Part shown: piece after piece, positions 29,839 to 48,559 of the stretch
Position numbering within the stretch: the stretch's first letter is position 1
How the letters are laid out: each line of letters begins with the position of its first letter
Assembly: GCF_964204645.1 (NCBI RefSeq)
Contig: NC_134036.1
Location: 8,222,812-8,286,811 of the forward strand
Length of the DNA stretch: 64,000 bases
Reading direction: 5' to 3'
DNA from: Tubulanus polymorphus
Taxonomy: Eukaryota; Animalia; Nemertea
Notes under the pieces: model-generated
The model's database searches: none
Told to the model about the DNA's origin: nothing
The model's input: only the letters and a program-made list of their open reading frames with translations
Program-made: the position numbers and the translations under genes

Positions 29839-30258
29839 TACCTACCACCCCTCACTATTGTTGGAAAACTAAATGTTCCGCACTGACTAAAAATTAGTAA
29901 TAACATTTTAGAAATGGCCAGAATTTTAACTTAGGTTCTATCTCATTTTTATTTTACAATTGCGATTGGTATAATTTTTTTTTTAAACGGCCGTTAAGGC
30001 TTCATGTTTCGTCTGCAATTCACTGCAAATAGTTACGCAACTACGCACATTTCAGTGTTTTTGGCAGCTGTACACTCAATGGACACCGTTCGTGACTAGC
30101 TTCACTGCGGAATTATCATTAATTAACATGGCCATATCACATCATCAACTTATATTGTGCATTAAAACACTAACAGCCGAAATAATTGAAATGCACACAC
30201 GATTTCTATCATTGAAAATTGAGAGAGTGACCATGTTTGTGTTCTGCTGCTTCGCGTA
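29839..30258 (+). repeat. Left part of the host repeat interrupted by the Polinton (continues at 47441-47490)
   Basis: High identity to 20536-20954. Confidence 0.88.
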
Positions 30259-30348
30259 AGTAATTAGAAAAGTGGGGTTTCATACCAGAGGGCGAGAGGG
30301 CGAGACACCACTCATCACCACAAGTAATTTTTTTTCCTAATAAATGGG
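30259..30348 (+). repeat. Left TIR (contains promoter motif and ATG of ORF 30344)
   Basis: AGTAATTAGAAAAGTGGGG...GTAATTTTTTTTCCTAATAAATGGG; reverse complement of 47351-47440. Confidence 0.95.
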
Positions 30349-30670
30349 AGATAGAAAAGCATTCTTAGCAACAATAAATAACAGAATAAAACCAGCAAAA
30401 AAACAATTTGAAATAAAAAAGTTAGTTGATGTTACAAAAGAAATTGAACATAAGATATTGAAATTAGAAAAGATAAAAACTAAATATGGAGAGAAAGTAT
30501 CAGCTAATTTAAGCTACTGTAATGTTAGTACATCACGAGAATTTAAAGTGTTTTTACCCGATAAATGGGTTTCATTGAGTATGGAGGAATTGAAAGATTT
30601 AATAGGATTTAAAATAATATATCATGGGAAAAATGAAGACGGTCATCATGATTTAGAAATTGTTGATTAA
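30344..30670 (+). CDS. Polinton hypothetical protein (108 aa; possibly OB-fold ssDNA-binding)
   Basis: ATAAATG start; a diverged homolog at 21421-21762 supports coding status. The fold is a guess from the beta-rich TKYG pattern. Confidence 0.75.
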   Translation: MGDRKAFLATINNRIKPAKKQFEIKKLVDVTKEIEHKILKLEKIKTKYGEKVSANLSYCNVSTSREFKVFLPDKWVSLSMEELKDLIGFKIIYHGKNEDGHHDLEIVD

Positions 30671-31675
30671 ATAAAAAATAAAAATAATGAATATCTAGAA
30701 TCCAAAATGACCTTAGTCGTTTTATAAACAACTACAATCATACAGTACATCTGTTACATGTTATTATAAGAGAGTGCTTCATTTGAATATTGATCAATCA
30801 AACAGGTGTTGCACAACGTTGTTGTTATATAATAAGCACGTAGTACATACAACACACACAAACCAGTTAGCTGGTATTGAATTACTGCGTTTTCATTGGT
30901 TTCTGAAAACGAGGTTTATTTAAATTAGCTCGGCCGTGACGATAGGAGGATAGTCATCATTCTCTCGTGATTAAAAGGAATATTTCAATGTTTTTACGGT
31001 AAGTTTTAGCAAAACCACCCGACTTGACTCACAGAGTTTTTAGGGGATAAGCATCCCGTTATTGAGAGGCGCCACGAGATACCTATCCCCAAGCATTTCT
31101 ACTTACACCCCTGTGACCCACACCTCACCAATTCTCCTTCAATGGTTGACAGGAAACACATTATATTAAAGGCGCCTAATGCATTTCCTATCAACCCCTT
31201 ACCCCCGAAAGGAGGATCGAAAGTCGAAACTGAAGGAGAACCACGGAGGGTGGACAAAGGTGCATTTTCGAAATGCCCCTGCAAGCCAAGCCCGGCGGCA
31301 CTCCAGTGGTTGAATGAATTGCCTTATATACTTAGCTAAAACACCTAAGTAAATGTTGTTGGTGCTAAAAAAATATGTGAAATTTGAAATTATAAATTAT
31401 TCCGAATGAAAAGAATGTAAGAATGAAAACTGAAAAATGAATTATGTATTTTCAACTTAATTATGATATAATTTTTAATCAAATTAGTAATCAATTACTA
31501 TGTTAATTGATTAACAAATTCAAATTCAAATATTCAAATAAAAACAAAATAAATTAATAAATATAATGAATATCTAGAATCCGAAATGACTTATCTGGAC
31601 AATTTAATTGCTCCGCATAGATAGACAAAAGTAGTGAGATATTCAATTATTTTTTTTTGCTTTTTTTCTAAAATA

Positions 31676-32044
31676 TTAATCCATTTTTTTTATTATCAAT
31701 TTTGGAATTTCAGAAGTATTTTCATTTTTGATAGCAGTTGTTTCAGAATTACTAATATCATGAATTTTATTTGATTTCTTATACCAATTACACCCAATCA
31801 AAATGAATACAATTACAAATCCAACTGTAAAATATAAATATTTATCAAATATTCTATTATCAGAAGGAGTAGAAATAACAATATTTTCACCATTTTTATT
31901 AACATTTCTATTACTTATTTTTTCTTTTACAGCTTTTTTATATTCTTGTGATTTAATTCCTAATTGCCGAGACCATTCAATTTGTTTCTGAGTTCTCGGT
32001 TTTTTCTTCACAGTTAATTCCTTCACTTTTTTCACTTCGCTCAT
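31676..32044 (-). CDS. Polinton hypothetical protein with basic N-terminus and one TM helix
   Basis: ATAAATG start; hydrophobic YLYFTVGFVIVFILIGC. Confidence 0.7.
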   Translation of the reverse strand: MSEVKKVKELTVKKKPRTQKQIEWSRQLGIKSQEYKKAVKEKISNRNVNKNGENIVISTPSDNRIFDKYLYFTVGFVIVFILIGCNWYKKSNKIHDISNSETTAIKNENTSEIPKLIIKKMD

Positions 32045-32582
32045 TTATTATAGAAATATTTTTACTTTCAATATTTGAAAATGTTATAACTCCAGTTGAT
32101 AATAATGTCATAAATCCACCTAATTGAAATGATAAATATCCAATCCATTTATTTAATTCAGTCATAACTAAATAATCATTTTTTAAATCGAAATATAATC
32201 TATTTTCATCTTCAATTGGTAGTATATAATTACATAATTTACTATAACCTTTTACTACATTTTCTGATATCGCGTCATTAATTCTAGCTGTTCTCGCGGC
32301 TTCATAAATCTTAAATAATCTAATAATTTCATCTGATTTCATTGTGTCTAATTCATTATAAGTTAAATTTTTACTGACAAAATTTTTACATTTTCCAGAT
32401 GCTATTAATATTTCTAATTGATGTTTACAATAAAGATAATATTCATAATTATTATTTGTTGTAACATTATTTAAAGCACCATCATCTGGAATTAATTTTG
32501 TTTCTGTTATTCCTAAATCATCTAAAGTTTTTTCAATTGGAACATCACCATTTTTAGATTTTATTTTCTTTTCACCTACCAT
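31977..32582 (-). CDS. Polinton hypothetical protein (201 aa)
   Basis: TAATTTTTTT-N6-TAAATG start motif; long ORF in AT-rich DNA. Confidence 0.75.
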   Translation of the reverse strand: MVGEKKIKSKNGDVPIEKTLDDLGITETKLIPDDGALNNVTTNNNYEYYLYCKHQLEILIASGKCKNFVSKNLTYNELDTMKSDEIIRLFKIYEAARTARINDAISENVVKGYSKLCNYILPIEDENRLYFDLKNDYLVMTELNKWIGYLSFQLGGFMTLLSTGVITFSNIESKNISIINERSEKSEGINCEEKTENSETN

Positions 32583-32615
32583 TTATATAACAAAAAAATT
32601 AATTGTGTGATGTTG

Positions 32616-32770
32616 CAACTAGAATTTAACTAGAATGTAACTAGAATTCAACTAGATTAACAAGCTAGTTGAAATATTGTTAAATCTAGTTGATTTTTGT
32701 TTCAACTACTAACAACTAGAATTCAACTAGAATGTAACTAGAATTCAATTAGATTAACAAGCTAGTTGAA
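32616..32770. repeat. Intergenic array of direct and inverted CAACTAG(AAT) units
   Basis: Repeated (C/T)AACTAGAAT ~11-mers plus inverted CTAGTTG, arranged as two blocks. Confidence 0.85.
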
Positions 32771-32771
32771 T

Positions 32772-33380
32772 TTAAATAAATTCATATTTAAATGGGTGTT
32801 GTAATCTAAATAGTAATTTTGATCTTTTAATATTTTTCAACTTATCCATATATTCATTATGTAAATCATGTGGAATAATATCATTTTCCTCAAGTGCATT
32901 TTTCATTGATTTTCTATCTGCATTGTTGAATAAAACTAGAAATCTAATGTTTTCTCTAAAGTCTTTAACAATTGAATTATATTTTTGATTTAAAACCCAA
33001 GTTGTTATCCCAAAATGTCTCCCAGAGAAAGCTAAATAACATAACTCACTTTCTCTAACTTTTGAATCATGTAAATTTGCACAATCATCTATGATAAATA
33101 ATGTATTTGATCCTTTATAAATATCAATTGCTATTTTTATACAATTATCTAAATTTTCTTTTACTGTTTTAGGATCTAATATAATAAATTTATTATTTCT
33201 AGTAATATTTCTATCATAAGTTTGATTAAATTCATATGTTGGACAAAATAATACTATATTATCAAAATAGTTTTTGTAAACAGTTTCTAATAAATTTAAT
33301 ATAAAATAAGTTTTTCCACAATTTGTTACACCAGAAATTAACATATTATGAGGCTCAAATATGAATAATTCCTTATTCAT
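32772..33380 (-). CDS. A32/FtsK-HerA-like genome packaging ATPase
   Basis: Walker A GVTNCGKT, Walker B LFIIDD, SGRH motif, LNQ. Confidence 0.9.
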   Translation of the reverse strand: MNKELFIFEPHNMLISGVTNCGKTYFILNLLETVYKNYFDNIVLFCPTYEFNQTYDRNITRNNKFIILDPKTVKENLDNCIKIAIDIYKGSNTLFIIDDCANLHDSKVRESELCYLAFSGRHFGITTWVLNQKYNSIVKDFRENIRFLVLFNNADRKSMKNALEENDIIPHDLHNEYMDKLKNIKRSKLLFRLQHPFKYEFI

Positions 33381-34508
33381 TTATATATTTTTAATTTTAC
33401 TTGATAATATCCATTCATTGAATTTATCTGGCCATCCAACCCATTTTACTAAAGAATATTTTTTTCTTTTAATAGTTTTTGTTTTTAATACTTTTTCAAT
33501 TTTATATTCTTGTTCTAGATTTTCAGTAGTTAAACTTAATTCTTCTTCATAAAAGTAACCATCAACTTCTTCACCATCTAAATCTTCTAATTAATAGACA
33601 TATGGTTTTGTTGTTATTACCTTTTTTATTTTATATATTTCTCTAGTAAAATTTCGATCGTATCCTTTGTCAAATATCTTTTTATACTTAGAAATTCTAA
33701 CATTTTGACCAACTTTAAATTTAGGTTCACCAAAATCATCTATAAGAAATGCTCCATATAAATTATTCCAAACAATTTCAGCATTTTCAGATTTTCTAGC
33801 ATCAATAGGTTTCATTCCAATAGAAGAATGATAAGAATTATTATATCCTTCTATCAATTTTGGTAAAACATCAATCCATTTAAAAGTATTATTTGCTGTA
33901 AAATATTTCCACATTCTTGTTCTTAATGTTCTATTAAATCGTTCAACAACTGCTGCTTTTTTATCTGATTTTGTTGAAAAATATTTAATATTATGATTAT
34001 CTAAGAGTTCATGAACAAGTGAATTATCAAATTCTTTTCCATCATCAAATTGTATTTTTTCTGGTTTTAGTTTATCATCCGAAAGAAATTTTCTTAAAAC
34101 ATGTGATGTTTGTGCAGCATCTTTTCTATAAAGTGGGAAGCTCCATACATAACGACTAAAAATATCAATTATATTCAATAACCACCAATAATCATCATTA
34201 TCTTTCTTAACATTTTTCATATCAATTAAATCTCCTTGCCACTGTTGATCTACATAACTTACCATAGTTTTACGAGTTTTATATTTTCTAACAATTTTTT
34301 TATGTGTTGTATATGTTGGTTGTTCTAACATAAATTCATTTATATCTTTATATTTAACTAAATTTTGTGGGATTATCTTATCTAATTTATCTTGTTTTAC
34401 TTTACGCCATATATTTTTAGTAGAAGAATAAGCAACCGAACTCTCAGGGTTGTAATATAAATTTCTTAAATATTGTTCTTTAGTATTAGGAGTTTTTTTA
34501 CCACTCAT
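33381..34508 (-). pseudogene. rve (retroviral-like) integrase with C-terminal chromodomain, interrupted by in-frame TAA at 33591-33593
   Basis: WQGDLID, IDIFSRY, QFDDGKEF, VVERFNRTLR. After the stop the frame continues LEDLDGEEVDGYFYEEEL...YKIEKVL...LVKWVGWPDKFNEWI to TAA at 33381. Confidence 0.9.
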
Positions 34509-34538
34509 TTATATATCCTTAATTTTAACTTTATATTT

Positions 34539-35786
34539 CTAATATTGAATACTATCTAATTGTGAATTTACAATATTTAATTGCGCGTCAGATATAATAT
34601 AAATGTGCATTTTAAAATTTTTGATTCCTTTTTTCTTTGTTATGAATAATTGTATTCCATCTTTTGTATTTTGTAGTTTTTTCCCAGAACCATGTAATGA
34701 ATTATCTTCAGTTGTTCTAAAATCTAACCATAATGCATATTTATTACCGGTATAATAATCAATTTGATTAATGTTACAATTTTCAAATGATTTTACTTTT
34801 TCATTCATAAAATGTTTTTTAATTTCTACCCATTGATCTATCATTCTCATTCCTTGACAAAATATTTTATTTGCTATTCCTTCGATAGTTATTTCTACTT
34901 TTGTTATTTCAGGATTATAATAATTGTCAACATTTATTGCACCATTAGTATATGTTCCAATGGTAAAAAATATTAATATACCTTTAATAGATCTTCTTGG
35001 GAAGTTAATATTCTCATTAATTATTTCATCATTTGCATTAATAGTTACAGTTTTAAATTTATCAATATAATCATATAATAATGAAAACCCTTGATTGTAT
35101 TGAGTTTGAATTATACTTGAAATATTTTCATCAGTTACTGTATCATATTCTAAACATATATTCGATAATTTATAACTCATATCTTTATTAACGCTAGATA
35201 ATACAATTTCATTTACAGGAGCAAATGTTATCTCAAATATAATATCTTCTTGAATTGCGTATTTATATAAAGGTGCATTATTATTTATCAATTCAAAGTC
35301 TAATGGAATTTTATATTTGCTTCCATATATACTTTTTATCAATCTATCTACATCATTTGTTAATATTGCGCTATTAGCTTCTGATCTTAATTTATTTTGG
35401 TTTTCTGATTGAATTCCTTGAAATATCATATTATTTCTATTTTCTTTAGTTAACCATAAATCTTTATAATGCATAAATAAATTATAATCATCTAATGAGA
35501 AAACTGTTTCTGGACCAATCTTTATTGTTAACTTTTTAATCAAATATCTCCCAACATTATCAACAACATAATTATTATTATTACCGATTACTTTTATATC
35601 AGCTGATAAATAAATACTATTTGGAACATAAAAAGTATTTTGTGTTAATCTAGGAATTCTAACGTATAAAGTTTCATCGGGATTAATATTTGAAGGGTTG
35701 TGAGTAATTATATGATGTGATCTTTCTGCTTTAATAGCATTAGATATTCTAGAAATCTTAGAAGGACTTATATAACTCCCACTCAT
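34539..35786 (-). CDS. Putative double jelly-roll major capsid protein
   Basis: 415 aa, beta-strand-rich pattern typical of Polinton/PLV MCP (YKIPLDF, LSNICLEYD, YALWLDFR); context within the element. Confidence 0.7.
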   Translation of the reverse strand: MSGSYISPSKISRISNAIKAERSHHIITHNPSNINPDETLYVRIPRLTQNTFYVPNSIYLSADIKVIGNNNNYVVDNVGRYLIKKLTIKIGPETVFSLDDYNLFMHYKDLWLTKENRNNMIFQGIQSENQNKLRSEANSAILTNDVDRLIKSIYGSKYKIPLDFELINNNAPLYKYAIQEDIIFEITFAPVNEIVLSSVNKDMSYKLSNICLEYDTVTDENISSIIQTQYNQGFSLLYDYIDKFKTVTINANDEIINENINFPRRSIKGILIFFTIGTYTNGAINVDNYYNPEITKVEITIEGIANKIFCQGMRMIDQWVEIKKHFMNEKVKSFENCNINQIDYYTGNKYALWLDFRTTEDNSLHGSGKKLQNTKDGIQLFITKKKGIKNFKMHIYIISDAQLNIVNSQLDSIQY

Positions 35787-35823
35787 TTATTTAACAAAAA
35801 AATTAATTATTTATTTTTTGATA

Positions 35824-37260
35824 TCATGGTTCACTTGATATTTTTGATATCATATTTACTAAACCAAAAATAATAGCACTTACAACTGTAATTAAAAATA
35901 AAATAATATGTTCAGCAGCAAAGTTAATAATGTTTCCTGCAGATTTCAATATAAAACCAACAATTGAAGCAATAACTCCTGGTAAAGCTGCAGCAGATTT
36001 CTTTGATAGTTCCCATAAATATTTTGCTAATTTCTTTAAACCATCCTTTACTTTATCTTGTATAGAATTATTACCTGGAGGTTTATCTGGTTTATTGGGA
36101 GTAGGAGTAGATTTTAATGAATTTGAAATAGCTAAACCAATTGTTGTAAATAACATAGTTACAGCTGTTACAATTGAAAGAATTGTTATACCTTCTAATT
36201 TAAATAATAATCTTATTCTGTCTTTTAATGATATTTCAGAATCTGGTTTTATCAACAAATCTTTAAAAATAACTTTTAATCTATTAATATTATAATCATA
36301 TGATTTTAACAATAATTTAATTTCTTCTTTCTGTACTTCTAAATTATCTTTTAAATTACTAATTTCTTTTTCTAAACGTAATTCTTTTTGCCTATATTCT
36401 ATTTCATCAATTACTTGATGATCTAAATCAGACTTTAATTGTTCTATTTCTTTATTTTTATCAGTTAATTCTTTTTCCAAATACGTAATTTTTTGATCTC
36501 TTATACTTTTATTATATGCAATTTTATCAGATGCTAGTTTTATACTAATAATTTCTCTAATTGCTTTATCAGAAAATATATCTAAATCTTCTAATTCTTG
36601 ATATGTTGCATCAAGTAATCCATTTGGTAAAAGTTTTTCAGTTTGAACTTCTCTTGAATTAGGTTTACTAGTTTTGGAATTAATAACTTCTTTAGGAATT
36701 TTTTTTTGTCTTAAATTTGCATTAATTATATCAAAAAATTTAGCATTTCTTTGTTTAAATTCTTTTAAATTATAATCTCTTTCTTCTTGTGTAACATCGG
36801 TTATAACATCATCAATGATTTTCTTAATTCTATCTGGTTTAAATAAATTAAAAGTTGATTTTGTTATTATTTTATCACCACTTTTAAGATTTAAAATCTT
36901 AAAATAATAGTCGCCTTTCAATTTCCAATAATAATCACCATTTAAATATTTTAAATCTTTTACTAAATAATTCATACCTTTATTTGTTATATTGAAACCA
37001 GATCTTTTTAATATTGGTTTAAATTCATGAATAATTTCATTATAATTGTATTCTTTTTCTGTTATTTCTGGTACTTCATTTTCAATACTTATCTTTGAAC
37101 GTGCTTTGTCAATATATTGAGGTGTAGTTAAATTAGAATTATATGCTGTTTCATTACCATCATTAAAACTTGTTTCATCAAAATCAGGTGGTTGTTCATC
37201 AGTTATACCAGGTTCATCAAAAGGATCCATTCCAATATCTTCTACACCTTCTACATCCAT
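35824..37260 (-). CDS. Coiled-coil protein with C-terminal hydrophobic/amphipathic helices (putative membrane protein)
   Basis: Acidic N-terminus, heptad region, TM-like ITILSIVTAVTMLFTTIGLAI, Pro linker, amphipathic and hydrophobic C-terminus. Confidence 0.8.
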   Translation of the reverse strand: MDVEGVEDIGMDPFDEPGITDEQPPDFDETSFNDGNETAYNSNLTTPQYIDKARSKISIENEVPEITEKEYNYNEIIHEFKPILKRSGFNITNKGMNYLVKDLKYLNGDYYWKLKGDYYFKILNLKSGDKIITKSTFNLFKPDRIKKIIDDVITDVTQEERDYNLKEFKQRNAKFFDIINANLRQKKIPKEVINSKTSKPNSREVQTEKLLPNGLLDATYQELEDLDIFSDKAIREIISIKLASDKIAYNKSIRDQKITYLEKELTDKNKEIEQLKSDLDHQVIDEIEYRQKELRLEKEISNLKDNLEVQKEEIKLLLKSYDYNINRLKVIFKDLLIKPDSEISLKDRIRLLFKLEGITILSIVTAVTMLFTTIGLAISNSLKSTPTPNKPDKPPGNNSIQDKVKDGLKKLAKYLWELSKKSAAALPGVIASIVGFILKSAGNIINFAAEHIILFLITVVSAIIFGLVNMISKISSEP

Positions 37261-37276
37261 TTATATAATAAAAAAA

Positions 37277-38665
37277 TTAAAATTTAAAATATAATATTCC
37301 TCCGATTACAATTCCTATACAAGTTATAGCTAATTTAGTATTTTCATGGGATTTATTATCATTATCAGTTTTAATTATATCATGTTGAATTTTATCAGTT
37401 CTATTATTTTCTGATGTATTGTAATCTTTTATTTTAGAATCATTATTTAATTTAATATTCTTAGTTTTAGTTTCAGTTGATTGAATGTGTTTTTTATTTT
37501 TATCACCTTCCATTAATTTTGGAGCAGTAATAATCTTTTTATTTATATCATTTAATCCAAATGAATTATTTATTGTTGCAGTTTTAATTAGATTATTATA
37601 ACCAATTATGTTTCCCATCTTTAATACTAAATCATTAGAAATAATTAATAGATTAGGGCCTATACAATAATTAAGTCTTACATGAGATTTATCTAAATAA
37701 TTTTGATATCTTATAATGTTTTCTGGAATCGATCTATTTTTATCATCATGTATGGAATCTTCAAATAATACTTTGAATTGTTTCTGTGTATCAAATGATG
37801 TATTCAAATTTCCAATTATCGGTGATCTTGTTTCAACTTGTGATCCTAGAATACATATCAAATAAATTCTAATAGATTGATTTATTCTTTCTATACCTGA
37901 TTTAGTAAAACCTTCACTATTTTCTAAAATAAAATAAACCCAACCATTATTGTTTTCTTGTTTTAAATTATCATAAAATTTTGGTAATTTATTGAAATTT
38001 AATGTTTCTAAATCCTTTGTTTCTATTTTACCATAACCTAATTTATTATTATAGATATTATAAAAACTATTAGATGGTATGGGAAGTGCACAATATTCTG
38101 CAATCTTTCTAGGGCATGGAAGTTATCTTATTGTTCCAATTTTTGTTCTAAAATCAGAATTATTTATATCTATATTAAATTCATTGCAAATTTTATAAAA
38201 CTTTGATAAATTAATATTATTATCTAATTCTTTAAAATATCTAGATCCTGGTAAAGCGCACTCTAATTCATTTAATATTATTCTGATTTGAAAGTATGTA
38301 TGAAATCTAAATAAACTTTGAATTAGTTTATATTTAGAATTATTCAAATGATCATTCCAACTAATTCCACAACCTGTTGTTGCACAATAAACAGCAAAAT
38401 TTAATTGATTCTGCCAATACTTCATATTAGATTTTAATAACCATTGTTTTTCATCTTTCAATTTTTTAAAATTAATTAAATATACATGAAATATATTTTC
38501 CATCTTTGCATTAAAATTATTAGTTTCAGTAACATAAATATATAAATTAGTTAATGAATCTAAAACTTCATTTCTATATGTAATATCTTTATTAAAATCT
38601 ATTGCTGGAATATTATATTTAATTGATTTATTATATTGGAAAGCTTTTGGAAAACTATCTACCAT
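37277..38665 (-). pseudogene. Single ~462-codon Polinton gene with C-terminal TM anchor, split by in-frame TAA at 38123-38125
   Basis: The frame stays open from 38122 into ORF 37277-37861 (87 codons, LPCPRKIAEYC...GWVYFIL). Only the 38665 start has the ATAAATG motif. Confidence 0.8.
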
Positions 38666-38681
38666 TTATATAATTAAAAAA

Positions 38682-39116
38682 TTAATAATTTATTAATTCT
38701 TTTAATAATTTATCTTGTTCTTCAACTGTTATATGACCATTTAAACTTATTATATAATCTAGTGTGTTCTTTAATTTATTAATTTCTTTTATATTAGTTT
38801 TAATTTTTTCTTTATTACTTTTTATATTTAATTTTGAACTTATACCAGTTAAAACACTTGAACTTAATCCTAATACACCAATTGATATAGCTAAAGGTGT
38901 TAATGGACTGAATATTGCTAAAAATGTTATTACAGAACTAATTGTAACCGAACCACTTATAATCAAATAATATATAATTTTACTTTTTAAATATTTTTTC
39001 TTTTTTATCTTTAAGTCACTTTCAAATTCTAATATTTGTTTTTCTAAATATGTTTTTAATTTAGTTTTATTTATATCATGAGGAATAATATCAATACTAT
39101 CAACTTTATCTTCCAT
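38682..39116 (-). CDS. Two-TM hypothetical protein (144 aa)
   Basis: Start motif; two hydrophobic segments flanked by charged helices. Confidence 0.75.
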   Translation of the reverse strand: MEDKVDSIDIIPHDINKTKLKTYLEKQILEFESDLKIKKKKYLKSKIIYYLIISGSVTISSVITFLAIFSPLTPLAISIGVLGLSSSVLTGISSKLNIKSNKEKIKTNIKEINKLKNTLDYIISLNGHITVEEQDKLLKELINY

Positions 39117-39135
39117 TTATTTAGAAAAAAAATTA

Positions 39136-39558
39136 CTAATTAGTAAACTTATAAGCAACAAATATAACAATAACTGTTCCACCTAAAATCCAAATTATTT
39201 CATATTTCTGTTGTTCTTTACTTGGGGTATAATAATCTGATAATTTAGGTTTGTATAGATGTAATTTTTCTTTATTGGTTACCGCGTTATATAAACTCAT
39301 TGCATCATCAACTGATTGAAAATCTCTATGTGAAATCTTCTGATCATATAATTCTTTATTGATGTAATCCATATAGTTTTGTCTCTTTTCTCTATATTCT
39401 TCTGCAGCTTTATTGTATTTCTCTAACGCTAAGTTATGTCTTCTTTGTTCTCCTAATGAACTATTTTTATCAATATGTTTAAATAAATAACCACCACCAG
39501 TAAATGCTAAAGCGTTAACAATTGCCGATCCTATAATAGTTATAATTGCAGAAGCCAT
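39136..39558 (-). CDS. Hypothetical protein with hydrophobic N-terminus and C-terminal TM (140 aa)
   Basis: Start motif; MASAIITIIGSAIVNALAFTGGG and IIWILGGTVIVIFVAY. Confidence 0.78.
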   Translation of the reverse strand: MASAIITIIGSAIVNALAFTGGGYLFKHIDKNSSLGEQRRHNLALEKYNKAAEEYREKRQNYMDYINKELYDQKISHRDFQSVDDAMSLYNAVTNKEKLHLYKPKLSDYYTPSKEQQKYEIIWILGGTVIVIFVAYKFTN

Positions 39559-39582
39559 TTATTTAGCAAAAAAATTACGCAT

Positions 39583-39804
39583 TTATATGGGAGGAATATA
39601 TTTTTGTTTTTCCAAATAATCAATTGTTAAATTAGATAAAGTAACTGCTAACGTTAACTTTAAAATATCATTTATATCAAATCTATCAACATTAACACTT
39701 CCCATTTTGAATACTTTTTTTAATACCATTGAATAACCAACAGTTCCAACTGATAGTAATGCACCATTATATAATCCAGTTATTATCCACTTATTATCAC
39801 TCAT
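39583..39804 (-). CDS. Small hydrophobic hypothetical protein (73 aa)
   Basis: Start motif GTAATTTTTTTGATAAATAAATG; tightly packed between neighbours. Confidence 0.7.
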   Translation of the reverse strand: MSDNKWIITGLYNGALLSVGTVGYSMVLKKVFKMGSVNVDRFDINDILKLTLAVTLSNLTIDYLEKQKYIPPI

Positions 39805-40146
39805 TTATTTATCAAAAAAATTACTATCATCAAAATATTTAGTTAACTTATTTATGATTAATTCAACATTTATTTCATTACTAGTTTTATGATTATCATA
39901 TATTTTGGATAATATGTTTTTAATATCTTCAATAATTCCATCTTCATTTAATTCATAATATTCTAATGGTGATTTAATTAAATCAATTACTTTTTCTATA
40001 TTATACTTTTCTTTATCAATCATTGATGCATTGTTAAATGATTTACTTTTTATATCAGTAATGACATCATTTAGTTTAATTCTCATTTCTTTACTATGTT
40101 TAAAATCAAACCCAAAACATATACTCTGTCCAACAGTTATATTCAT
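39805..40146 (-). CDS. Hypothetical protein (113 aa)
   Basis: Start motif; its TAA abuts the next ATG. Confidence 0.7.
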   Translation of the reverse strand: MNITVGQSICFGFDFKHSKEMRIKLNDVITDIKSKSFNNASMIDKEKYNIEKVIDLIKSPLEYYELNEDGIIEDIKNILSKIYDNHKTSNEINVELIINKLTKYFDDSNFFDK

Positions 40147-40163
40147 TTATATAGTGAAAAAAA

Positions 40164-40916
40164 TTACTCTCTACATCTTATAACTAATTCATAAATTACA
40201 GGGAAATTATTTAAATCAATTAAGTATCCATTATGATTTCTAATTTCTAATCTAAAATTATTAAAACGAGAAATGCATGGTTTGAAATCACATTCTGTTA
40301 AATTATAATTTATTTGCGTTCCAAATTCTTTAACATTCTTCAATGGTAAAATGTTTAGTAAACCAGAATTACAAGTTATATCTTTAGTTGCTTCGAATGT
40401 TTTTGTAGGATCAATTAAATTGCAATAAATATAAAAATGTGTGTAAGGTATCAAGTTTGGTGTAGCATCAACATTTGAATAAAGTTTATCTGGTGTAATT
40501 CCTAACAGTTTAGCTATAGGTTTTTTAACTAAAAATTGATATTTTTCACTACGAGTTAACCTAATCCTTATTTTATCAGAACTATCACTTTTTAAAAATC
40601 TAATACTAAACCCGGAATTACTACCTAATTTGTGCCAGGCTTTTCTATTAATTTCTTGTGACAATGTATCTAAATTATATAACCCTGGTTTTAGATATAA
40701 ATGATACCTTTTATTTTTTTCCTGAACTATAAACAATTGATGATCAATAGTTTTACCCGTTATATTATAAAAAGAATTACATAAACTTATATTAACTAAT
40801 TTTAAATCTACACAATTCTTAAATTCTCTATCTAATTGTACTAGTAAATTATGAGATTTATAATTTGTAAGTCTTCTAGAATCAACAAATATTCTGTATT
40901 CTTTTAGTTCTACCAT
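40164..40916 (-). CDS. Putative minor capsid (penton, single jelly-roll) protein
   Basis: 250 aa with IFVDSR, LKPGLYN, FYIYCNLI, LLNILPL and LEIRNHNGYLIDLNN patterns typical of Polinton/virophage pentons. Confidence 0.72.
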   Translation of the reverse strand: MVELKEYRIFVDSRRLTNYKSHNLLVQLDREFKNCVDLKLVNISLCNSFYNITGKTIDHQLFIVQEKNKRYHLYLKPGLYNLDTLSQEINRKAWHKLGSNSGFSIRFLKSDSSDKIRIRLTRSEKYQFLVKKPIAKLLGITPDKLYSNVDATPNLIPYTHFYIYCNLIDPTKTFEATKDITCNSGLLNILPLKNVKEFGTQINYNLTECDFKPCISRFNNFRLEIRNHNGYLIDLNNFPVIYELVIRCRE

Positions 40917-40984
40917 TATTTATAACATAAAAAAATTACCGCTCATCACTAAAAATTAATTTTAATAAAATTTTTCCTTAATAA

Positions 40985-42286
40985 ATGGATGAGAAGATAG
41001 CATGCGAAATTTGTGGTGAACTTCTAAGAAAAAGTAATATGGCTCGACATATGAAAAAACATAATGAAAATTATAAACCCCCTAAAATAAACTGTCCAAA
41101 TTGTAATAAAACATTCTCTAGAAATTATTTCAAAAAACATTTAGAGAAGTGTAGAATTAATGGTGCAACAGCTAATGTTGATAATAATTCTGTTGAAGTT
41201 GAACCTGAAATCATTTGGAAAAGACCTTTCTTATTCTATGATAAGGATAATATAAAAGATCATTTCTGTGAGCCTTGTCGAATAAAATATAACCCTGAAA
41301 ATATAGAAGATTGGGAGAATCATCAATTTCGTAAAGCACATATAGATAAAATTTCTAATAAATTTGAAACTGAATTCAATGAAAGAAAAAATAATTTATT
41401 AGAAAAAATAAAATATGAGAAAACGTTACCAGATAATGAAGAAACAGTTGAAAAGTTAGAAAAACAATATAATGAATTAACAAGAAAAACATATTATTGT
41501 AAATATTGTAAATTGATTATTACAACAAGTAATTCAAATCTACATAATAGAACAATAAAACATAAAGAAAACGTAAGAAAATACCAAGAGCTTAATGAAG
41601 ATCTATTACCAAGAAATTATAAACAAAAATGCCCACAATGTAGTTATGCGACCTTAAGGCAAGAAGGTACTGTGTTATTTTGTGTTGATTGTGGATGGCA
41701 AAAGAATTTATGGGATGAAGAAAAAACTAGAAATTTTCTTATAGATCCAAAATTAAATTATCTTGATGAAATTTTTAAAATATTTTCTATAGAAGATCAT
41801 ACACCAGAATATATGCAATGGCTTGAAAAAATGAAAATAATAGAAAATAAAAATGGTGAAATAACTAAAAAAGATATTATAAAAACCATTATTCCACCAA
41901 CATTTAACACAAAACAAAAGAAAATGTATTTATATTTATTATTTAACGATTATTATGAAAAACCTAAATTAACAGAAGAAGATATGAAAAATATAAAAAA
42001 AATATTCAAACAAATATTAATGTATCATTTGGAAAATAGAATAACAGATTCAATAAATTATGAATTCTTTTTAAATAAGATTGTAAATTATTTAAACCTA
42101 GATATTATAATTCCATTTGATGAATTAACAAACAAAAAGAAACAAAGAGAGCGAGATGAAATGTGGAACAAGATAGAACTTTATTTAAATGAGAAAAATG
42201 GAATGGAAGAAGAACCTGAACAATTAAATGAAAATGAAGAAGCTAATAGTGATTTCGAGTATGATGATATTGATTTTATGTTTTAA
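40985..42286 (+). CDS. Multi-zinc-finger protein fused to a poxvirus A2/VLTF3-like late transcription factor domain
   Basis: N-terminal C2H2-type fingers, zinc ribbon CPQC-x13-CVDC, then KLTEEDMKNIKKIFKQ...SINYEFFLNKI...DEMWNKI resembling VLTF3 (by recall). Confidence 0.72.
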   Translation: MDEKIACEICGELLRKSNMARHMKKHNENYKPPKINCPNCNKTFSRNYFKKHLEKCRINGATANVDNNSVEVEPEIIWKRPFLFYDKDNIKDHFCEPCRIKYNPENIEDWENHQFRKAHIDKISNKFETEFNERKNNLLEKIKYEKTLPDNEETVEKLEKQYNELTRKTYYCKYCKLIITTSNSNLHNRTIKHKENVRKYQELNEDLLPRNYKQKCPQCSYATLRQEGTVLFCVDCGWQKNLWDEEKTRNFLIDPKLNYLDEIFKIFSIEDHTPEYMQWLEKMKIIENKNGEITKKDIIKTIIPPTFNTKQKKMYLYLLFNDYYEKPKLTEEDMKNIKKIFKQILMYHLENRITDSINYEFFLNKIVNYLNLDIIIPFDELTNKKKQRERDEMWNKIELYLNEKNGMEEEPEQLNENEEANSDFEYDDIDFMF

Positions 42287-45200
42287 TGGCCATAAGGTAA
42301 TGTTTTTATACCATCATCTGAAATATGCCTTTTATCATCAAATGGATTTAAAGTAGTTTTTTCAACTTCATTAATGTACATCTCATGATCTTCTGATCTT
42401 AAACAATTCATCTTGTGTTTCATTACAATTGAGTTATATAAACACTTTATATAATCTTGAAATTCTATATGTTTATCAACCACATGTTTTGTTATTCCTT
42501 TTAACTTTTTAGCTTCATGATCTTTTGTTCTGTAACTATACATTTTACTTCTTATCCCAACAAATTCAATCATTTCATCACCTCCTAATTCATCTTTAAA
42601 TTTACCAGGAATCTTTTTATTATCATTACTAAACAATTCATGATCTTTGGGGTAATTGCTAAAGTCGAAATAATGTTTCAATGTTTTTAAGTCTTTTGTT
42701 ATATCATTTGTCTTGATTTTTAGTATGTAACTGTCAGTATTTTTTTGGATTAATGGGAACCCAGAATTGAATGTTCCATCATCTGTTGATAAATCATAAA
42801 CATAGTCAGTTGGGTTATATATTTCAAATAAATCTTTAACTTCTTCTGTTAATTCTTTTTCTACATGCCTTAAATTAAAACAATTTGGTTTAGATTTAAT
42901 TAATTCTATATTCATATTAAATCCTAATGAACAGAATAATATATTTAATCCTGATATAGCCACTTTTCCTTTCTGTGCAAAGGTTATCTTTTTATCCTTT
43001 GTAAATTTTTTAGTACCATCGGCTGCGTAGAACCCAATGAAGAACCATTTTCTTAAATTATTTTTTGCATTTAATACATAATCTGGAACTATCTTTTCTT
43101 TTGTTGAAGTATTACTTTTCACTATTGCATGAATATAGAATTCATCATTATATTCTATAGCAAAATCTTTAGGATTATTTACAAGTATTCTATAAACTGC
43201 TGATGATTTCATAACATCCATGATTCTAAATGTTTTATGTGAATAAACTTCTTCACAGAATTTCTTAATTCTTTCTAATAATTTTAAGTCTTGATTGCAT
43301 AAATACCAACAATATTTATTACCCCAAACATATTTATACACACCTGCTGAACCATCACCCATGAAAAATCCTTTGATAAAATATTCTTTTTCTTCTAATG
43401 TTTCAGGTTCTATATTATAAATATTACCAATTATTTCATCAAATGACATATGATTCATTCTTGGGAAAAATCTTTTATGTAATAATTCATCTCCAATTTT
43501 TATATCAGTTGGTTTTATTTCATCACCATTTCGTTTAATTAAACTGTGGTCTTCAGTAACATCTACAAACCCTAATTTAGTTCTAACTCTATAGATTTTC
43601 TTATTTGTTTTATGTCTAATAATATTCTTTAATTTTTTCCATCCATTTCTTGTCCAAACATCCATTAAACCATTTATTTGTATTAGTTCTTTTTCACCAT
43701 ATGAAATATAAGATTTATTTTGATTAGGAATAATTTCTGAAATTCTTCTAATTAATATTTGGTTATTGTATTTTAATAATATTGGGGTGTCAGCTGTTAC
43801 AGAATCGAAGTATAGAATTTCTATATGTTTTTCCCCAAACAATGGTTGTAATACATTGTAATAAAAATCATACATTAATAATTTTGATATTTCTAAAACT
43901 GTTGAACCAATGAAAATGGGTTTATTAAATTTCATTGACGTTCTTTTTAATTTTACTGCTGTTAAATAATCTTCAAATCTTTTATTTCCTAAATGTCTAG
44001 GACTTGATTGTAAATGTCTTAATCTTTCAGAATTATTTACTAATTCAATATCATTTCTATTTCTAATATTTTCACAAGTTTTTCCATAAAAACTATTGTT
44101 CATCAATTTAAAAAAATCTTTTTCGAAATCAGTTTTTGATATGGTTCTCTGTTGAGTATTGAAATCTATATATTTTTCTAACCACTTCGATTGATTAAAT
44201 TCAATATATCTATGTACTTTCTTTAATTTCATTCCTTGTTTTAGATAAAATTTTAACATTCTATAATGAACAATATAATTATATTTATTATTTTGAGTAA
44301 GTATTAATTTTTCTGTAAAAACATGATCTTTTGGTTTTATTTTCTTCTGGTATTCACTTAAATAACTATCATCTACAGTTAAATGTTCTGGGCAATAAGG
44401 TAAGTTTCTTGTTTTAAACTTTATATTTTCAGGATATTCTAAATCAACTACAAAGAAATAACCAATTGGTGCTTCATCTTTTAAACTCGCAATTGCGCTT
44501 TCCCAATCAGTTTTATCATCACTTTCAACTTCTGTTAATATAAAATTTTTATATGGTTGAGGTTGCATCATTGCCCAACCATATAAATTATTGGCGTCAA
44601 TATATAATAATTTATATTCATCATTTGCTTTAAAATACCTATCTCCCATAACACCACTAATTCCACCTCTAATTGATTTTTCAAATAATAAAACCATATC
44701 TGGTTCTTTTAATAAATCTAATTCTACATTTGTATATTTTAAACCACATTGCCAGGTTAAACCAGGACTTGAATAACAATAACAAGGGTCAACATTAAAA
44801 TGGTTTAGATTAACTTCTCTAAACTTTTCAAATATATCTGCCAATATCATAACATCTGATTTTAAATATAAATCAACTAATTCGCCATGATTTTTCATCT
44901 TAAAATGGTTCCAAATATTTAATGTTCTATCAAAAACTTCGTCTTTCACATACTCCTCTTTTAATTTATCATAAAATTGATCTTTTAATAATTCTGTTAC
45001 ATTAAAATCATTGTGTGTTTTATAAAATGAATAAGGAATTGCACCTTTATATCTCAATAATTTAAAATCTTGGTCATTTGGATAATAATATCGAGTTATA
45101 ACAAAATCATTATCAACTAAACTTTTTGATAAATTATCTAATGAACTTGCTAGAAATCTATAAGAATCTAAAAATCTAATGCAACCAAATTGAAATGAAA

Positions 45201-47355
45201 TATAATTTTCAGATGTTTTAGCTAATAGTTTAAAATCATATTTTCTTACATTTACACCATTCATAGCATTATATTCTTCTATTTCTTGATTAATTGCGCC
45301 CAATTTTCCTGATAATTGTTTTATAAATAGATGGGTATCATATCCTGATAAATTATGAAATAATATTGGTACGAAATTTACTTTTTTAGCTTGTAAATTG
45401 CAATCTTCATGAGCAGCTCCACGATATTTTGAATTTAAATGATTATGATCTCTAACTTTTTTATCAAATGAATAAAAACGTTTTTCACAGTAACAACAAT
45501 GAGTTGCATAATTAAAATCAATTTCATCTTCTTTTGTTATAACTATTCTTTTATTTTTGTTTAATAATTTTGCAAAATCACTTTCTAATTCAATCATTTT
45601 ATCACAAAAATCATTAACTACATTTTCACCTCTAAAAGAAATATATTGACTTTCATATAATTCGGGATAATTTGATTTTATATAAATTCCATAAGCAGCA
45701 GCTCTTTGATGAACTTTTTTAATTGTATTTATAATTGGTGGGTCTTGTATTGTGTCTTCATTTAATTCATTTCCTTTATCCATTGATTTTAATAATTGCT
45801 TTTTGTTATATATTTCTTTTCTATCTTGATCAGTTAATTCTTTATTCAACGATTCAAAATCCCCATAAATTACAAATGGAACAATATTCTTAAATTTATG
45901 ATTAGTAAATTTCAATTTATAATCTTTTTCTGTTGGCATTATTAATTTACAAAAATCTTTATTATCACATAATTCTTTATGTTTTAATAATGTATTCTCA
46001 GTCATAAATTTAGATAAACATTTTCTACATAGATAAATTTTACGATGATGATCACTTTCTGTTGTTCTAAAGAATAAATCAATTTGTTTTAACCACATAT
46101 AATGTTCATTTTCATCTTTTTTGTAATATAACAAATCTATAGCATTTTCATCATCATAATATTCTGTTAAATATAAAGCTTCCAATGTATAATCTTTAAT
46201 ATTTTCACCTTTTGTCTTTGGTAATTGCATTAATTCAAATACATTTATTTTTAAATTATTAATTTTTTCTATTTTAGGAATCATTTTTATAGTTACTGGA
46301 TATTGATCAATTTTATATAATGTTTCATATTTCCGGTAATTTGTTATTCTAAAACTATGCGTCATATCTTCTGTTTGGTGTAAACAACTAATAATTGACC
46401 ATAGAAAACATTTATTATCTTCATTTTGAACATTTATTACTGCTTTTGTTGTAAATGGTAATTTAATATAAGATGATGCTTTAATATCCTTTTCTGTTGT
46501 AAAGTTTGAATCATTTTTAAACATTTTATTACTTTTTGATGTTTTATTCCTTTTTGTATTATAAACATTTAAATCTAAATATATAATTTCATTCAATGTT
46601 AAGCCAGAACCCTCAAAATATCTTTCTTCAATATGACGTTTAAATTCATTTAATATTTTTTCTAACTTCTCTTTTATTTGTGTTTTTGAAATTATTTCTT
46701 CAGAGTGTGTTTGAATATTATAATTCATTTTTTCTTCTGACTTTATAAAACTTACTTTCCCAGAGATACTAATTTTTGGATATTCAACATCTGTTATCAA
46801 ATCTAGTAATTTTTCTATTATTTCATTAAATGTACTATAATCTTCTATTGTTGTACCTTTAAAAAATCTAAATATAATAGCTGCAGGACCAATTTTACTA
46901 TGTAATGTTTCTAAGATTTCAATTGTATCTTTTATTTCTAGTGAATCAATATAATTTCTAACATTTTCCATGTAAGGTTTATTTGAAATGGATTTAGTTT
47001 TTGAAGTTGATTCTTTTACTTGTTGAGGTTTATTATCAAAATATTCTAATCCTAAAACATTTTTATTTAAATTTTTATAATGTTTTTGTGATTCGAGATG
47101 TCTATTATAATTCCTTTTTACTATAAATTCATTACAAACTTCACATTTTATTTCATCCACATTCATATTTTCTAATCGTTCTTTTCTTTCATTAGAATTT
47201 TCTGGAGTTTCAAAATCTATTACATTTTTTATATGATTTACAGTTTTTTCATGTCGTGTTTTATGAGATGTATCGATGTATTTTTTACAATATTGACAAT
47301 AATATTGATTTTTATTGACATTATTGTTTTCTAGTTGGTGTTCATTCTCCCCCAT
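42283..47355 (-). CDS. Protein-primed family B DNA polymerase (pPolB) with N-terminal Zn fingers, OTU-like and HNH/EndoVII-like domains and an intein
   Basis: Exo motifs YGDFES, FHNLSGYD, YLKSDV; polymerase motifs YIDANNLYG, KLMNNSFYGK, YFD/TDS. NEDNKCFLWS (OTU-like Cys); CCYC...VRDHNH...GAAHEDCN (EndoVII-like). Confidence 0.95.
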   Translation of the reverse strand: MGENEHQLENNNVNKNQYYCQYCKKYIDTSHKTRHEKTVNHIKNVIDFETPENSNERKERLENMNVDEIKCEVCNEFIVKRNYNRHLESQKHYKNLNKNVLGLEYFDNKPQQVKESTSKTKSISNKPYMENVRNYIDSLEIKDTIEILETLHSKIGPAAIIFRFFKGTTIEDYSTFNEIIEKLLDLITDVEYPKISISGKVSFIKSEEKMNYNIQTHSEEIISKTQIKEKLEKILNEFKRHIEERYFEGSGLTLNEIIYLDLNVYNTKRNKTSKSNKMFKNDSNFTTEKDIKASSYIKLPFTTKAVINVQNEDNKCFLWSIISCLHQTEDMTHSFRITNYRKYETLYKIDQYPVTIKMIPKIEKINNLKINVFELMQLPKTKGENIKDYTLEALYLTEYYDDENAIDLLYYKKDENEHYMWLKQIDLFFRTTESDHHRKIYLCRKCLSKFMTENTLLKHKELCDNKDFCKLIMPTEKDYKLKFTNHKFKNIVPFVIYGDFESLNKELTDQDRKEIYNKKQLLKSMDKGNELNEDTIQDPPIINTIKKVHQRAAAYGIYIKSNYPELYESQYISFRGENVVNDFCDKMIELESDFAKLLNKNKRIVITKEDEIDFNYATHCCYCEKRFYSFDKKVRDHNHLNSKYRGAAHEDCNLQAKKVNFVPILFHNLSGYDTHLFIKQLSGKLGAINQEIEEYNAMNGVNVRKYDFKLLAKTSENYISFQFGCIRFLDSYRFLASSLDNLSKSLVDNDFVITRYYYPNDQDFKLLRYKGAIPYSFYKTHNDFNVTELLKDQFYDKLKEEYVKDEVFDRTLNIWNHFKMKNHGELVDLYLKSDVMILADIFEKFREVNLNHFNVDPCYCYSSPGLTWQCGLKYTNVELDLLKEPDMVLLFEKSIRGGISGVMGDRYFKANDEYKLLYIDANNLYGWAMMQPQPYKNFILTEVESDDKTDWESAIASLKDEAPIGYFFVVDLEYPENIKFKTRNLPYCPEHLTVDDSYLSEYQKKIKPKDHVFTEKLILTQNNKYNYIVHYRMLKFYLKQGMKLKKVHRYIEFNQSKWLEKYIDFNTQQRTISKTDFEKDFFKLMNNSFYGKTCENIRNRNDIELVNNSERLRHLQSSPRHLGNKRFEDYLTAVKLKRTSMKFNKPIFIGSTVLEISKLLMYDFYYNVLQPLFGEKHIEILYFDSVTADTPILLKYNNQILIRRISEIIPNQNKSYISYGEKELIQINGLMDVWTRNGWKKLKNIIRHKTNKKIYRVRTKLGFVDVTEDHSLIKRNGDEIKPTDIKIGDELLHKRFFPRMNHMSFDEIIGNIYNIEPETLEEKEYFIKGFFMGDGSAGVYKYVWGNKYCWYLCNQDLKLLERIKKFCEEVYSHKTFRIMDVMKSSAVYRILVNNPKDFAIEYNDEFYIHAIVKSNTSTKEKIVPDYVLNAKNNLRKWFFIGFYAADGTKKFTKDKKITFAQKGKVAISGLNILFCSLGFNMNIELIKSKPNCFNLRHVEKELTEEVKDLFEIYNPTDYVYDLSTDDGTFNSGFPLIQKNTDSYILKIKTNDITKDLKTLKHYFDFSNYPKDHELFSNDNKKIPGKFKDELGGDEMIEFVGIRSKMYSYRTKDHEAKKLKGITKHVVDKHIEFQDYIKCLYNSIVMKHKMNCLRSEDHEMYINEVEKTTLNPFDDKRHISDDGIKTLPYGH
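42739..43803 (-). other. Intein (355 aa) with LAGLIDADG homing endonuclease in pPolB motif C
   Basis: YFD|SVTADTP...VTEDHSL (block B)...IKGFFMGDG...FIGFYAADG...YVYDLST...LIQKN|TDS; excision restores YFDTDS. Confidence 0.93.
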
Positions 47356-47440
47356 TTATTAGGAAAAAAAATTACTTGTGGTGATGAGTGGTGTCTCGCC
47401 CTCTCGCCCTCTGGTATGAAACCCCACTTTTCTAATTACT
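47351..47440 (-). repeat. Right TIR (contains promoter motif and ATG of pPolB)
   Basis: Perfect inverted copy of 30259-30348. Confidence 0.95.
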
Positions 47441-48559
47441 CGCGTAAATCCCGCGCGGTGGTGCAACCGCGTGGAGTGGGGCCGATACGTATAGGTCTAT
47501 GAAACTGTCGAACAATCGACAGGTACAAAATGTTTTCAAAATCATATTACAATAAAATTATGTTGTTGTAATTCTTGGTATCGTTTCAAATTATTTTTAT
47601 TCATGTCTTTTGCTTGCGCCTGCCACCGATTTTCAGAGGTTTTTAGAAAACAAATCTCAAAGGCCAATATTGTTTGCCGACTTGTAATCGATTTTGAGGA
47701 CTACAACCACATGACGATCTCAAACACAAACAAATTGGTCTCAAAGGAAATTTGAAGAAAATCTTTATTATTAACAAATAAAAACGTCTACCCGGTACGT
47801 CAGGTTTCACTTAATCATTATATCAATAATCGCGTGTGTCTTCAAAGATCATTCGCGGTATGAACTAATTCAGAATATAGTTTCCGGACGTAACCTAGCA
47901 CTGGTTCTGATGATGATACAGAACTGGCCTGAACAGAACTATGTATTCATCCTGCCGTTATTGTAATAGATATATGTTGTGCGCCAACATTCATTTATCG
48001 GGTTTTAATCGGCTCGTTTTACTCTGTTGCCGTCCTTGGGAATTATGTAGGCATGTATATCTCACTTCATTTTTTGTTCATCGCAATATAGGGGCCGGTT
48101 GCACAGTCACGGCTTACACTTAAGATCAGTCTTAGACCATCTTAGTTCACTAGCCAATCAAACAACTCGACACAAGTCTTACGAATCAAGACCACTTTTG
48201 GTGTCAAACCACCACTGTGCAACTGGCCCCGGGCAAATCTATTTTATTAATCCTTGGACGTCGTCATCCCAAAATCTGAGCTAAGGGCGCTTTTTAAGAA
48301 TGTCTAAAAGAATGTCTGGGGCCAAACTGCCCCCTCCAAGCCAGGAAACCTGTACCGGTACACGATCTGTTGATACAAATACGCTTTTCCTTGTTTATGT
48401 AATGCGCTGCCCTTGGACATGATAGCAGTTGATGATATCGTTCACGCATTAAAAAACTTAGTTAACGTGGTTATGATATATATTATATATGAGGCCATGG
48501 AAAGATCGCGCAGTACAAGAGAGTTATTGGTATATCGCTTATTACCCATCCGTTACCGA

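Follow-up and report, generated by a model that had tools for sequence, protein, structure and literature searches.

A Maverick/Polinton element of Tubulanus polymorphus with poxvirus late-type promoters and a possible virophage-like way of life

A 64,000-nucleotide stretch of the genome of the nemertean Tubulanus polymorphus (assembly GCF_964204645.1, contig NC_134036.1, positions 8,222,812 to 8,286,811 of the forward strand; hereafter the window, with positions counted from its first letter) contains a complete Maverick/Polinton element of 17.2 kb (17,182 nt) at 30259-47440, nearly all of whose genes start at a signal resembling the late promoter of poxviruses. The element ends in 93-nt terminal inverted repeats (TIRs) that differ by 1 mismatch (30259-30351, plus strand, and 47348-47440, minus strand) and is flanked by a 6-bp target site duplication (TSD), CGCGTA, at 30253-30258 (seen in the sequence, in junction reads and in a paralog) and 47441-47446. 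An empty site with a single CGCGTA (20949-20954) lies in a paralogous repeat of the same window, and 1051 reads of run X7, which bears the same species label, join position 30251 to position 47440. The 17,188 bases skipped by these reads equal the element plus one TSD (17,182 + 6); thus, the insertion boundary is confirmed twice, by the reads and by the paralogous empty site. The earlier note on this DNA, made from the sequence alone, had described a complete element with TIRs and a TSD, and the repeats, the CGCGTA duplication and the empty site bear this out. The insertion target is a high-copy host repeat (29282-30258 and 47441-47490) with an X7 depth of ~3,100, compared with 53 in the next flank bin; the empty paralog of this repeat occupies 20519-20998.

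Each of the 15 genes is a single uninterrupted frame, apart from two premature stops, in agreement with the earlier description of intronless, AT-rich genes. The Maverick/Polinton hallmarks comprise pPolB (1690 aa, 42283-47355, minus strand; PF03175, E 2.9e-19), whose promoter lies in the right TIR, an A32-type packaging ATPase (32772-33380, minus strand; PF04665, E 6e-14), whose own TAA doubles as the stop of the integrase frame, and an RVE integrase with a chromodomain (33381-34508, minus strand; PF00665, E 1.1e-10, and PF00385), which is broken by the stop at 33591-33593, the chromodomain lying beyond it. The probable major capsid protein (415 aa, 34539-35786, minus strand) matches Capsid_N weakly (E 0.01), as do 18 of its 56 aligned relatives at E<=0.01, and gave no hit against PDB sequences; its 926 relatives include one named bivalve. 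Capsid relatives at 54% identity (P0045 and its cluster; P numbers denote protein hits of this analysis, L numbers capsid-relative or viral-contig loci) are filed under Bartonella assemblies on contigs of 0.5-1.6 kb and are probably carried-over host DNA. A conserved 250-aa gene at 40164-40916 (minus strand), with 23 open reading frames (ORFs) in its cluster, probably encodes the minor capsid protein, judging from its size and conservation.

Among the 17 ORFs scanned with Pfam, no protease family was found, the adenovirus-type cysteine protease being a trait of Maverick/Polinton group 1, and no ORF matched an RNA polymerase, the sole such hit falling on the intein described below; the lack of an RNA polymerase had been noticed earlier. 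The gene content of Maverick/Polinton group 2 is described as variable (bioRxiv 10.64898/2026.06.19.733378). The element shares with Mavericks/Polintons (Polintoviricetes; adintoviruses; PMC8502044 and the same preprint) a length within 15-20 kb, TIRs, a 6-bp TSD, pPolB, an RVE integrase with a chromodomain, an A32 ATPase, a probable capsid gene and residence in an animal germline; it differs from the others in that no cysteine protease was found, and in the poxvirus-type promoters of nearly all genes, the A2-type VLTF3 module and the pPolB intein. Maverick/Polinton is a better name than Polinton-like virus (PLV), the label first given to the element. The virophage class (Maveriviricetes/Virophaviricetes) does not apply, as no maturation protease was found among these ORFs and the capsid relatives lie in Polinton-type loci; the element is virophage-like at most in its way of life.

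ATAAATG is found at 14 of the 15 gene starts and at 13 of the 657 other ATGs of the element (p 8e-21), the exception being the probable minor capsid gene, which starts TAAATAATG. When the 40 nt upstream of each gene were shuffled, ATAAATG appeared at 1.1 starts on average and at a maximum of 5 of 15. Bases at fixed distances further upstream separate the 14 starts from the 41 internal TAAATGs. T occurs at -10 in 13/14 of the starts and 12/41 of the internal TAAATGs, and at -11 in 14/14 and 16/41; the corresponding figures are 14/14 and 21/41 for A at -15, and 12/14 and 8/41 for T at -16. A full T-run precedes ten of the 14 starts and an A-richer form the other four. A division of the promoters into late (10 T-run) and intermediate (4 TAAAAT) ones is not borne out, because three of the four TAAAAT starts keep the T at -10. 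Both observations of the earlier note, namely that nearly all genes start in ATAAATG and that an upstream motif stands at a fixed spacing, are upheld by these contrasts, and the enrichment over shuffled controls, a check named beforehand, was found.

In vaccinia virus, the published late promoter consists of TAAAT and a following G, overlapping the start codon; a conserved T stands 10 nt upstream, accompanied by other Ts (PMC11980589), and a core of Ts lies 5-7 bp before TAAAT (PMC5294985). The signal of the element corresponds to it in TAAATG over the start codon (14 of 15 genes), in the T at -10 (13 of 14) and in a T-rich core 5-7 nt upstream; its consensus is tighter than that of vaccinia and adds TAA at -16 to -14 and A at -1. 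Stop-start coupling does not explain ATAAATG, since its TAA is the stop codon of an upstream frame at only 2 of the 14 starts, the motif also precedes genes that do not follow another gene of their strand (the two TIR genes and those starting at 32582 and 40985), and it is overprinted in coding sequence at 39805-39825.

Starts were counted in 83 loci encoding capsid relatives, 3 from genomes and the best 80 of 242 from metagenomes. Counts by group are restricted to conserved genes, in the element and in 56 of these loci; the groups were formed after the counts and the tree had been seen, and loci that were short, frameshifted or nearly identical to others were set aside, as was L014 (decayed; 53% capsid identity, 0/2). 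In the 58-row capsid tree, TAAATG occurs only in one clade of 14 rows (SH-aLRT 99) and on a single long branch, L054; in smaller trees, the support of the clade is 100/99 (capsid) and 100/96 (ATPase). Within the clade, whose GC content spans 20-44%, 57 of 66 starts carry TAAATG (12/14 in the element itself), and every clade locus analysed keeps it, across ~50% capsid identity. The sister group has TAAATG at 0/31 starts; among distant loci, the count is 0/43 for the AT-rich and 2/147 for the GC-rich ones. AT-richness is thus no explanation for the signal. Eukaryotic start codons usually have a purine at -3. At this position, 57 of 66 starts of the clade have T, compared with A in 36 of 43 starts of the AT-rich outgroup. 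As far as these sequences go, the TAAATG start is a trait of the clade that holds whatever the GC content and departs from the -3 purine rule followed by the relatives, and these three features strengthen the promoter argument first made for the single element.

Lineage-specific cargo genes (HNH-like nucleases, deoxynucleoside kinase) stand behind TAAATG promoters at L001:5568-6080, L007:1717-2445, L008:3289-4020, L035:2278-2895 and L003:10343-10981. Divergent gene pairs separated by ~30 nt, both members having TAAATG, were observed in the Polinton loci L009-L011 and, in a poxvirus-like contig, at L084:5916-5948. A distant group (L054, L055, L056 and L062; 34-36% capsid identity) also has TAAATG starts and head-to-head gene pairs; TAAATG is present at 9 of the 12 starts of the L054 group, with L065 counted within although its TAAATG is an internal Met. 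A common origin of TAAATG in the clade and in L054, tested without L065, was neither shown nor rejected (p-AU 0.13 and 0.19). In the sister group (L049, L051, L052, L045 and L015), TAAATG is absent, and TATA or TATAG often lies 5-20 nt before the ATG. A late promoter with TATA at the start is indicated for African swine fever virus by a reference title in PMC7163114, and the sister capsid group may be tuned to a different helper.

The second candidate link to poxviruses is a 433-aa zinc-finger protein (40985-42286, plus strand) with a C-terminal A2L/VLTF3 module. PF04947 matches residues 205-407 with 27.6 bits (cut-off 25; E 2.8e-6); the whole protein yields zinc-finger hits only in Pfam, and a word-index search with it missed VLTF3. 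The zinc ribbon retains four invariant Cys, and Atlas ranks VLTF3 clusters first (0.96). The domain found 4 hits among 1.84 billion representatives, namely two zinc-finger fusions, one unplaced protein and P0154, the best VLTF3 match outside the Polinton-type relatives of the element. P0154 (226 aa) has the canonical architecture of poxvirus A2, PF04947 with the A2L zinc ribbon PF08792, and is 63% identical to a gene in L084, a very AT-rich viral contig of 232 kb that is probably an insect poxvirus; TAAATG stands at 5 of 10 fully printed starts of L084, that of the A2 gene included. Single-sequence folding of the VLTF3 protein was unusable (pLDDT 46), and a model with pLDDT 83 was obtained from a 9-row alignment. 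Foldseek in BFVD placed cowpox and two entomopoxvirus A2 proteins at ranks 1, 3 and 4 (rank 2 is unnamed; E 1.6e-6) and giant-virus VLTF3s below them, a ranking that may have been favoured by the two poxvirus-type A2 rows in the alignment. The model suggests a zinc ribbon and a cyclin fold; its best PDB match is a TFIIB chain at a weak Z of 6.6, tied with other cyclin folds. The VLTF3-like gene reported earlier is therefore real by profile (PF04947 over its cut-off), cluster rank and structure. Like vaccinia A2L, it combines an A2-type zinc ribbon with a helical module; unlike A2L, the module is fused behind C2H2/U1-type zinc fingers.

The third feature is a 355-aa insert in motif C of pPolB (42739-43803, minus strand), which is a PolB intein with predicted splicing: it starts with Ser, ends with Asn, is followed by Thr at +1 and contains two LAGLIDADG motifs, and TIGR01445 scores over its cut-off with Pfam Intein_splicing just under. 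Motif C is uninterrupted in four distant Polinton polymerases. The best relatives of the intein in viral contigs come from 37 loci, with identities of up to 42% over the full length, and occupy the same site of giant-virus PolBs; three of the giant-virus PolB inteins end in a near-identical peptide. These loci have TAAATG at 18/87 starts and no fixed spacing. The X7 depth over the intein region (42634-43941) is 138-200, compared with 260-267 on either side, and some copies of the family may lack the intein or be more divergent there. Among the papers listed from the open-licence literature, supplements aside, we found no description of an intein in a Polinton pPolB.

The remaining genes have less definite assignments. 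The left TIR holds a T-run/ATAAATG promoter and the start of a 108-aa gene (30344-30670, plus strand) with no Pfam family and a 75% identical relative in L003; its product may resemble a small single-stranded-DNA-binding protein. The gene is followed by a non-coding stretch of ~1 kb (30671-31675) with a direct repeat of 35-44 nt near both ends; 102 nt of this stretch match L003 at 82%, and an Rfam scan of 29000-33000 gave no match. On the minus strand lie a 122-aa gene with a hydrophobic segment and the A-type upstream promoter variant (31676-32044) and a 201-aa gene with a T-run promoter (31977-32582), conserved throughout the family and without an assigned function; tandem 11-nt repeats, duplicated at a spacing of 97 nt, occupy 32616-32770. 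Beyond the capsid gene, also on the minus strand, are a conserved 478-aa gene with a T-run promoter and a coiled coil and hydrophobic tail (35824-37260), a conserved gene broken at 38123-38125 (37277-38665; 442 aa in L003), a 144-aa gene with a weak SLATT-like match of two transmembrane segments (38682-39116; E 0.004), a conserved 140-aa gene with a hydrophobic N-terminus (39136-39558), a 73-aa gene (39583-39804) with a promoter embedded in the final codons of the gene upstream, and that 113-aa gene itself (39805-40146), for which no usable Atlas family was obtained.

The GC content of the element is about 24% (20-33% per kb), compared with about 40% in the flanks. CpG is low in the element (0.50) relative to the flanks (1.1); as a distinguishing sign this was rejected, because relatives without TAAATG are likewise low (0.47 and 0.53). 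The X7 reads cover the whole element, mostly at 90-99% identity, and their summed depth is ~100-820 in bins wholly inside it, compared with 53 in the last flank bin. Depth and read identity together indicate that the element belongs to a multi-copy family. The stop at 38123-38125 is absent from most reads of the family; the present copy is slightly decayed and probably not autonomous. Elsewhere in the window, a BEL/Pao long terminal repeat retrotransposon gag-pol lies in three pieces at 3852-9403, an fn3 fragment was noted in the flanks of the element, a minisatellite with a unit of 35-43 nt occupies 48613-48923, and four long frames without a Pfam family (52674-56774) are probably another decayed mobile element. 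The retrotransposon, the fn3 fragment and the bivalve relative of the capsid suggest an animal host.

On balance, we think it somewhat more probable than not that the element lives in a virophage-like way and that its genes are read by an RNA polymerase of the poxvirus type, supplied by a helper that infects the same cell. The precedent is given by endogenous virophages, which are reported to answer only the giant virus whose late promoter they carry, CroV in the case of the mavirus type (PMC10945749). Mavirus and the endogenous mavirus-like elements of Cafeteria likewise are integrating pPolB/RVE elements with no RNA polymerase and with a late promoter motif of a large virus; their protist host and CroV helper were established by experiment (same source), whereas in the element a poxvirus-type motif, which matches the late consensus of vaccinia, points to a putative helper.

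Under such borrowing, the helper polymerase would start inside TAAAT, slip and add a 5' poly(A) leader, as described for vaccinia (PMC6211774); with a start within the AAA behind it and a leader made by slippage, the T at -3 would never be part of the mRNA. The capsid block and the two terminal promoters (those of the 108-aa gene and of pPolB) would become active only during late transcription of the helper, and the A2-like factor of the element would boost this transcription or redirect it to the element's own promoters. pPolB would then copy the linear genome, packaging would follow, and the integrase would insert copies into the germline; there they would for the most part stay silent. Any harm to the helper, or gain for the host, would be a putative further step.

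A number of observations weigh against dependence on a poxvirus-type helper. Scans of viral contigs with the capsid and with the VLTF3 alignment or the sister VLTF3 came back empty, and no helper was detected. Matches of the extended promoter pattern in viral contigs, listed for 80 of 120 loci, were single and scattered, and 28 of the 120 start a long frame, in varied genes. The present copy carries two premature stops, and coral polintoviruses, whose promoter type is unstated in the accessible text, are expressed in whole-colony RNA (PMC11131425). AATAAA does not discriminate (observed/expected 1.13 in the element, 0.98-1.13 in the clade and 0.92 in AT-rich distant relatives); its avoidance and that of splice donors were both rejected as support, since neither sets the clade apart. 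Depletion of TTTTTNT in coding strands (observed/expected 0.54 both in the element and in L084, 0.33 in the other loci of the clade and 0.78 in distant loci rich in AT) may lend mild support at best to the helper.

The other points against it concern VLTF3 and the intein. Apart from the poxvirus-type rows in the fold alignment, the VLTF3 tree (16 rows, none of them chordopox, asfar or irido) joins the group of the element to poxvirus A2 at only 66/60 and does not reject a grouping with the sister-Polinton VLTF3s (p-AU 0.25). VLTF3-like genes are also present in sister Polintons, which lack TAAATG; in L049, L051 and L052 this gene is short and lacks the zinc ribbon (Pfam E 3.6e-5 and 6.4e-4). 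VLTF3 homologs have already been published for coral polintoviruses (PMC11131425), and mriyaviruses are described as keeping VLTF3 (VLTF2/3) without an RNA polymerase and are thought to be nuclear (PMC11253617). With sister Polintons that lack TAAATG, mriyaviruses that lack a polymerase and a tree with weak support, VLTF3 is no independent proof of the helper, even if its origin, as judged from the comparisons above, leans towards poxviruses. The nearest relatives of the intein belong to giant-virus rather than poxvirus PolBs, in loci without a fixed TAAATG, and its sequence records contact or gene exchange between this lineage and nucleocytoviruses, not poxviruses in particular. The earlier note had spoken of three independent signals, taken here as the promoter, VLTF3 and the intein, converging on a pox-like or NCLDV helper, with VLTF3 acting together with a viral multisubunit RNA polymerase. 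The intein itself is confirmed and the promoter argument holds; the intein, however, points to giant-virus PolBs, VLTF3 is a weaker sign, and its tie to such a polymerase does not hold in mriyaviruses. The earlier interpretation is thus supported in part, with chromosomal silence, a helper in this animal and an antiviral role as putative elements of it.

The strongest alternative, though an unlikely one, is that the element is autonomous in the nucleus, where its own TFIIB-like A2/VLTF3 factor would work with host TBP and RNA polymerase II on promoters captured, together with the factor, from poxviruses. The failure to find a helper, the weak TFIIB match of the VLTF3 model and the polymerase-less, presumably nuclear mriyaviruses are consistent with it, as is a reference title in PMC7163114 according to which host TBP targets the intermediate and late promoters of vaccinia. 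However, the VLTF3 gene stands behind the same promoter and so could not start the cascade, and the relatives avoid T at -3. Moreover, among the clade loci, which are mostly short contigs, VLTF3 is present only as a cut N-terminus in L003, yet TAAATG is found in each of those analysed.

A helper other than a true poxvirus is less likely still; it could be a cytoplasmic linear element of the pGKL2 type, a poxvirus relative (egovirus) or a giant virus with a TAAAT initiator. The yeast element pGKL1 depends on the polymerase of pGKL2. These virus-like elements are linear and use a poxvirus-like TAAAN initiator with poly(A) leaders made by slippage; they differ in having their own RNA polymerase, no capsid or integrase, and an early-type upstream element instead of the late T-run (PMC6211774). 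The past contact with non-pox giant viruses indicated by the intein and the scattered single matches of the extended motif in viral contigs would suit such a helper. Against it, both the A2-type factor and a T-run placed 5-7 nt upstream agree with late transcription of poxviruses in particular. In the giant-virus loci sampled, TAAATG occupies only 14/265 and 18/87 starts, and its spacing is not fixed.

It is improbable that the promoters are leftovers of an ancestor that parasitised a poxvirus and that present copies spread simply as chromosomal transposons. The two premature stops are in keeping with a relic, and the reads of run X7 show no pile-up of molecule ends at the termini. However, the motif has been kept across ~50% capsid identity and a GC range of 20-44%, and on lineage-specific cargo genes, which implies continued selection. 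The remaining possibility, that the motif is not a promoter and reflects AT-rich chance, translation-start context or TAA-ATG coupling in a polycistronic RNA, draws on the 76% AT of the element, the two TAAs that are upstream stops and a T-run, possibly a terminator, that is often found behind a stop codon, and is largely refuted and very improbable given the shuffles (at most 5 of 15), the AT-rich relatives (0/43), the overprinted copy and the genes with no same-strand gene upstream.

Two further published groups are close to the element. The entomopoxvirus-associated PLVs (Barth et al. 2024, PMC11296320) are small Polinton-type viruses linked to poxviruses; compared by their description, they are ~12 kb long, have a protease, are found in occlusion bodies and have no reported RVE integrase, and promoters are not analysed in that paper (0 hits for promoter, TAAAT, VLTF and transcription). 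Coral polintoviruses (Stephens et al. 2024, PMC11131425) are endogenous Polintons of animals with a VLTF3 homolog, which is treated there as a gene exchanged with giant viruses, and their promoters are likewise not analysed (0 hits for promoter). In the same literature as above, no description of poxvirus-type promoters in endogenous Polintons was found. Thus VLTF3 in Polintons and PLVs linked to entomopoxviruses were already known, and what appears to be new, on the evidence of start-site sequences, is a Polinton clade with poxvirus late-type promoters.

A wider interpretation, which we offer tentatively and regard as doubtful, is that an entire clade of animal germline Polintons consists of heritable virophages of poxviruses, with late promoters of the poxvirus type and a captured A2 factor, which would be roused by poxvirus infection alone and curb it and would betray undiscovered invertebrate poxviruses, sister clades being tuned to other helpers. 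No virion has been seen for animal Mavericks/Polintons, according to the accessible part of bioRxiv 10.64898/2026.06.19.733378. The promoter gives a direct and cheap handle on the dependence of these elements on a helper. If the borrowing of a poxvirus-type polymerase is true, the virophage strategy would extend from protists to animal germlines, and the promoter signature could predict viruses of the poxvirus type in hosts for which none are known.

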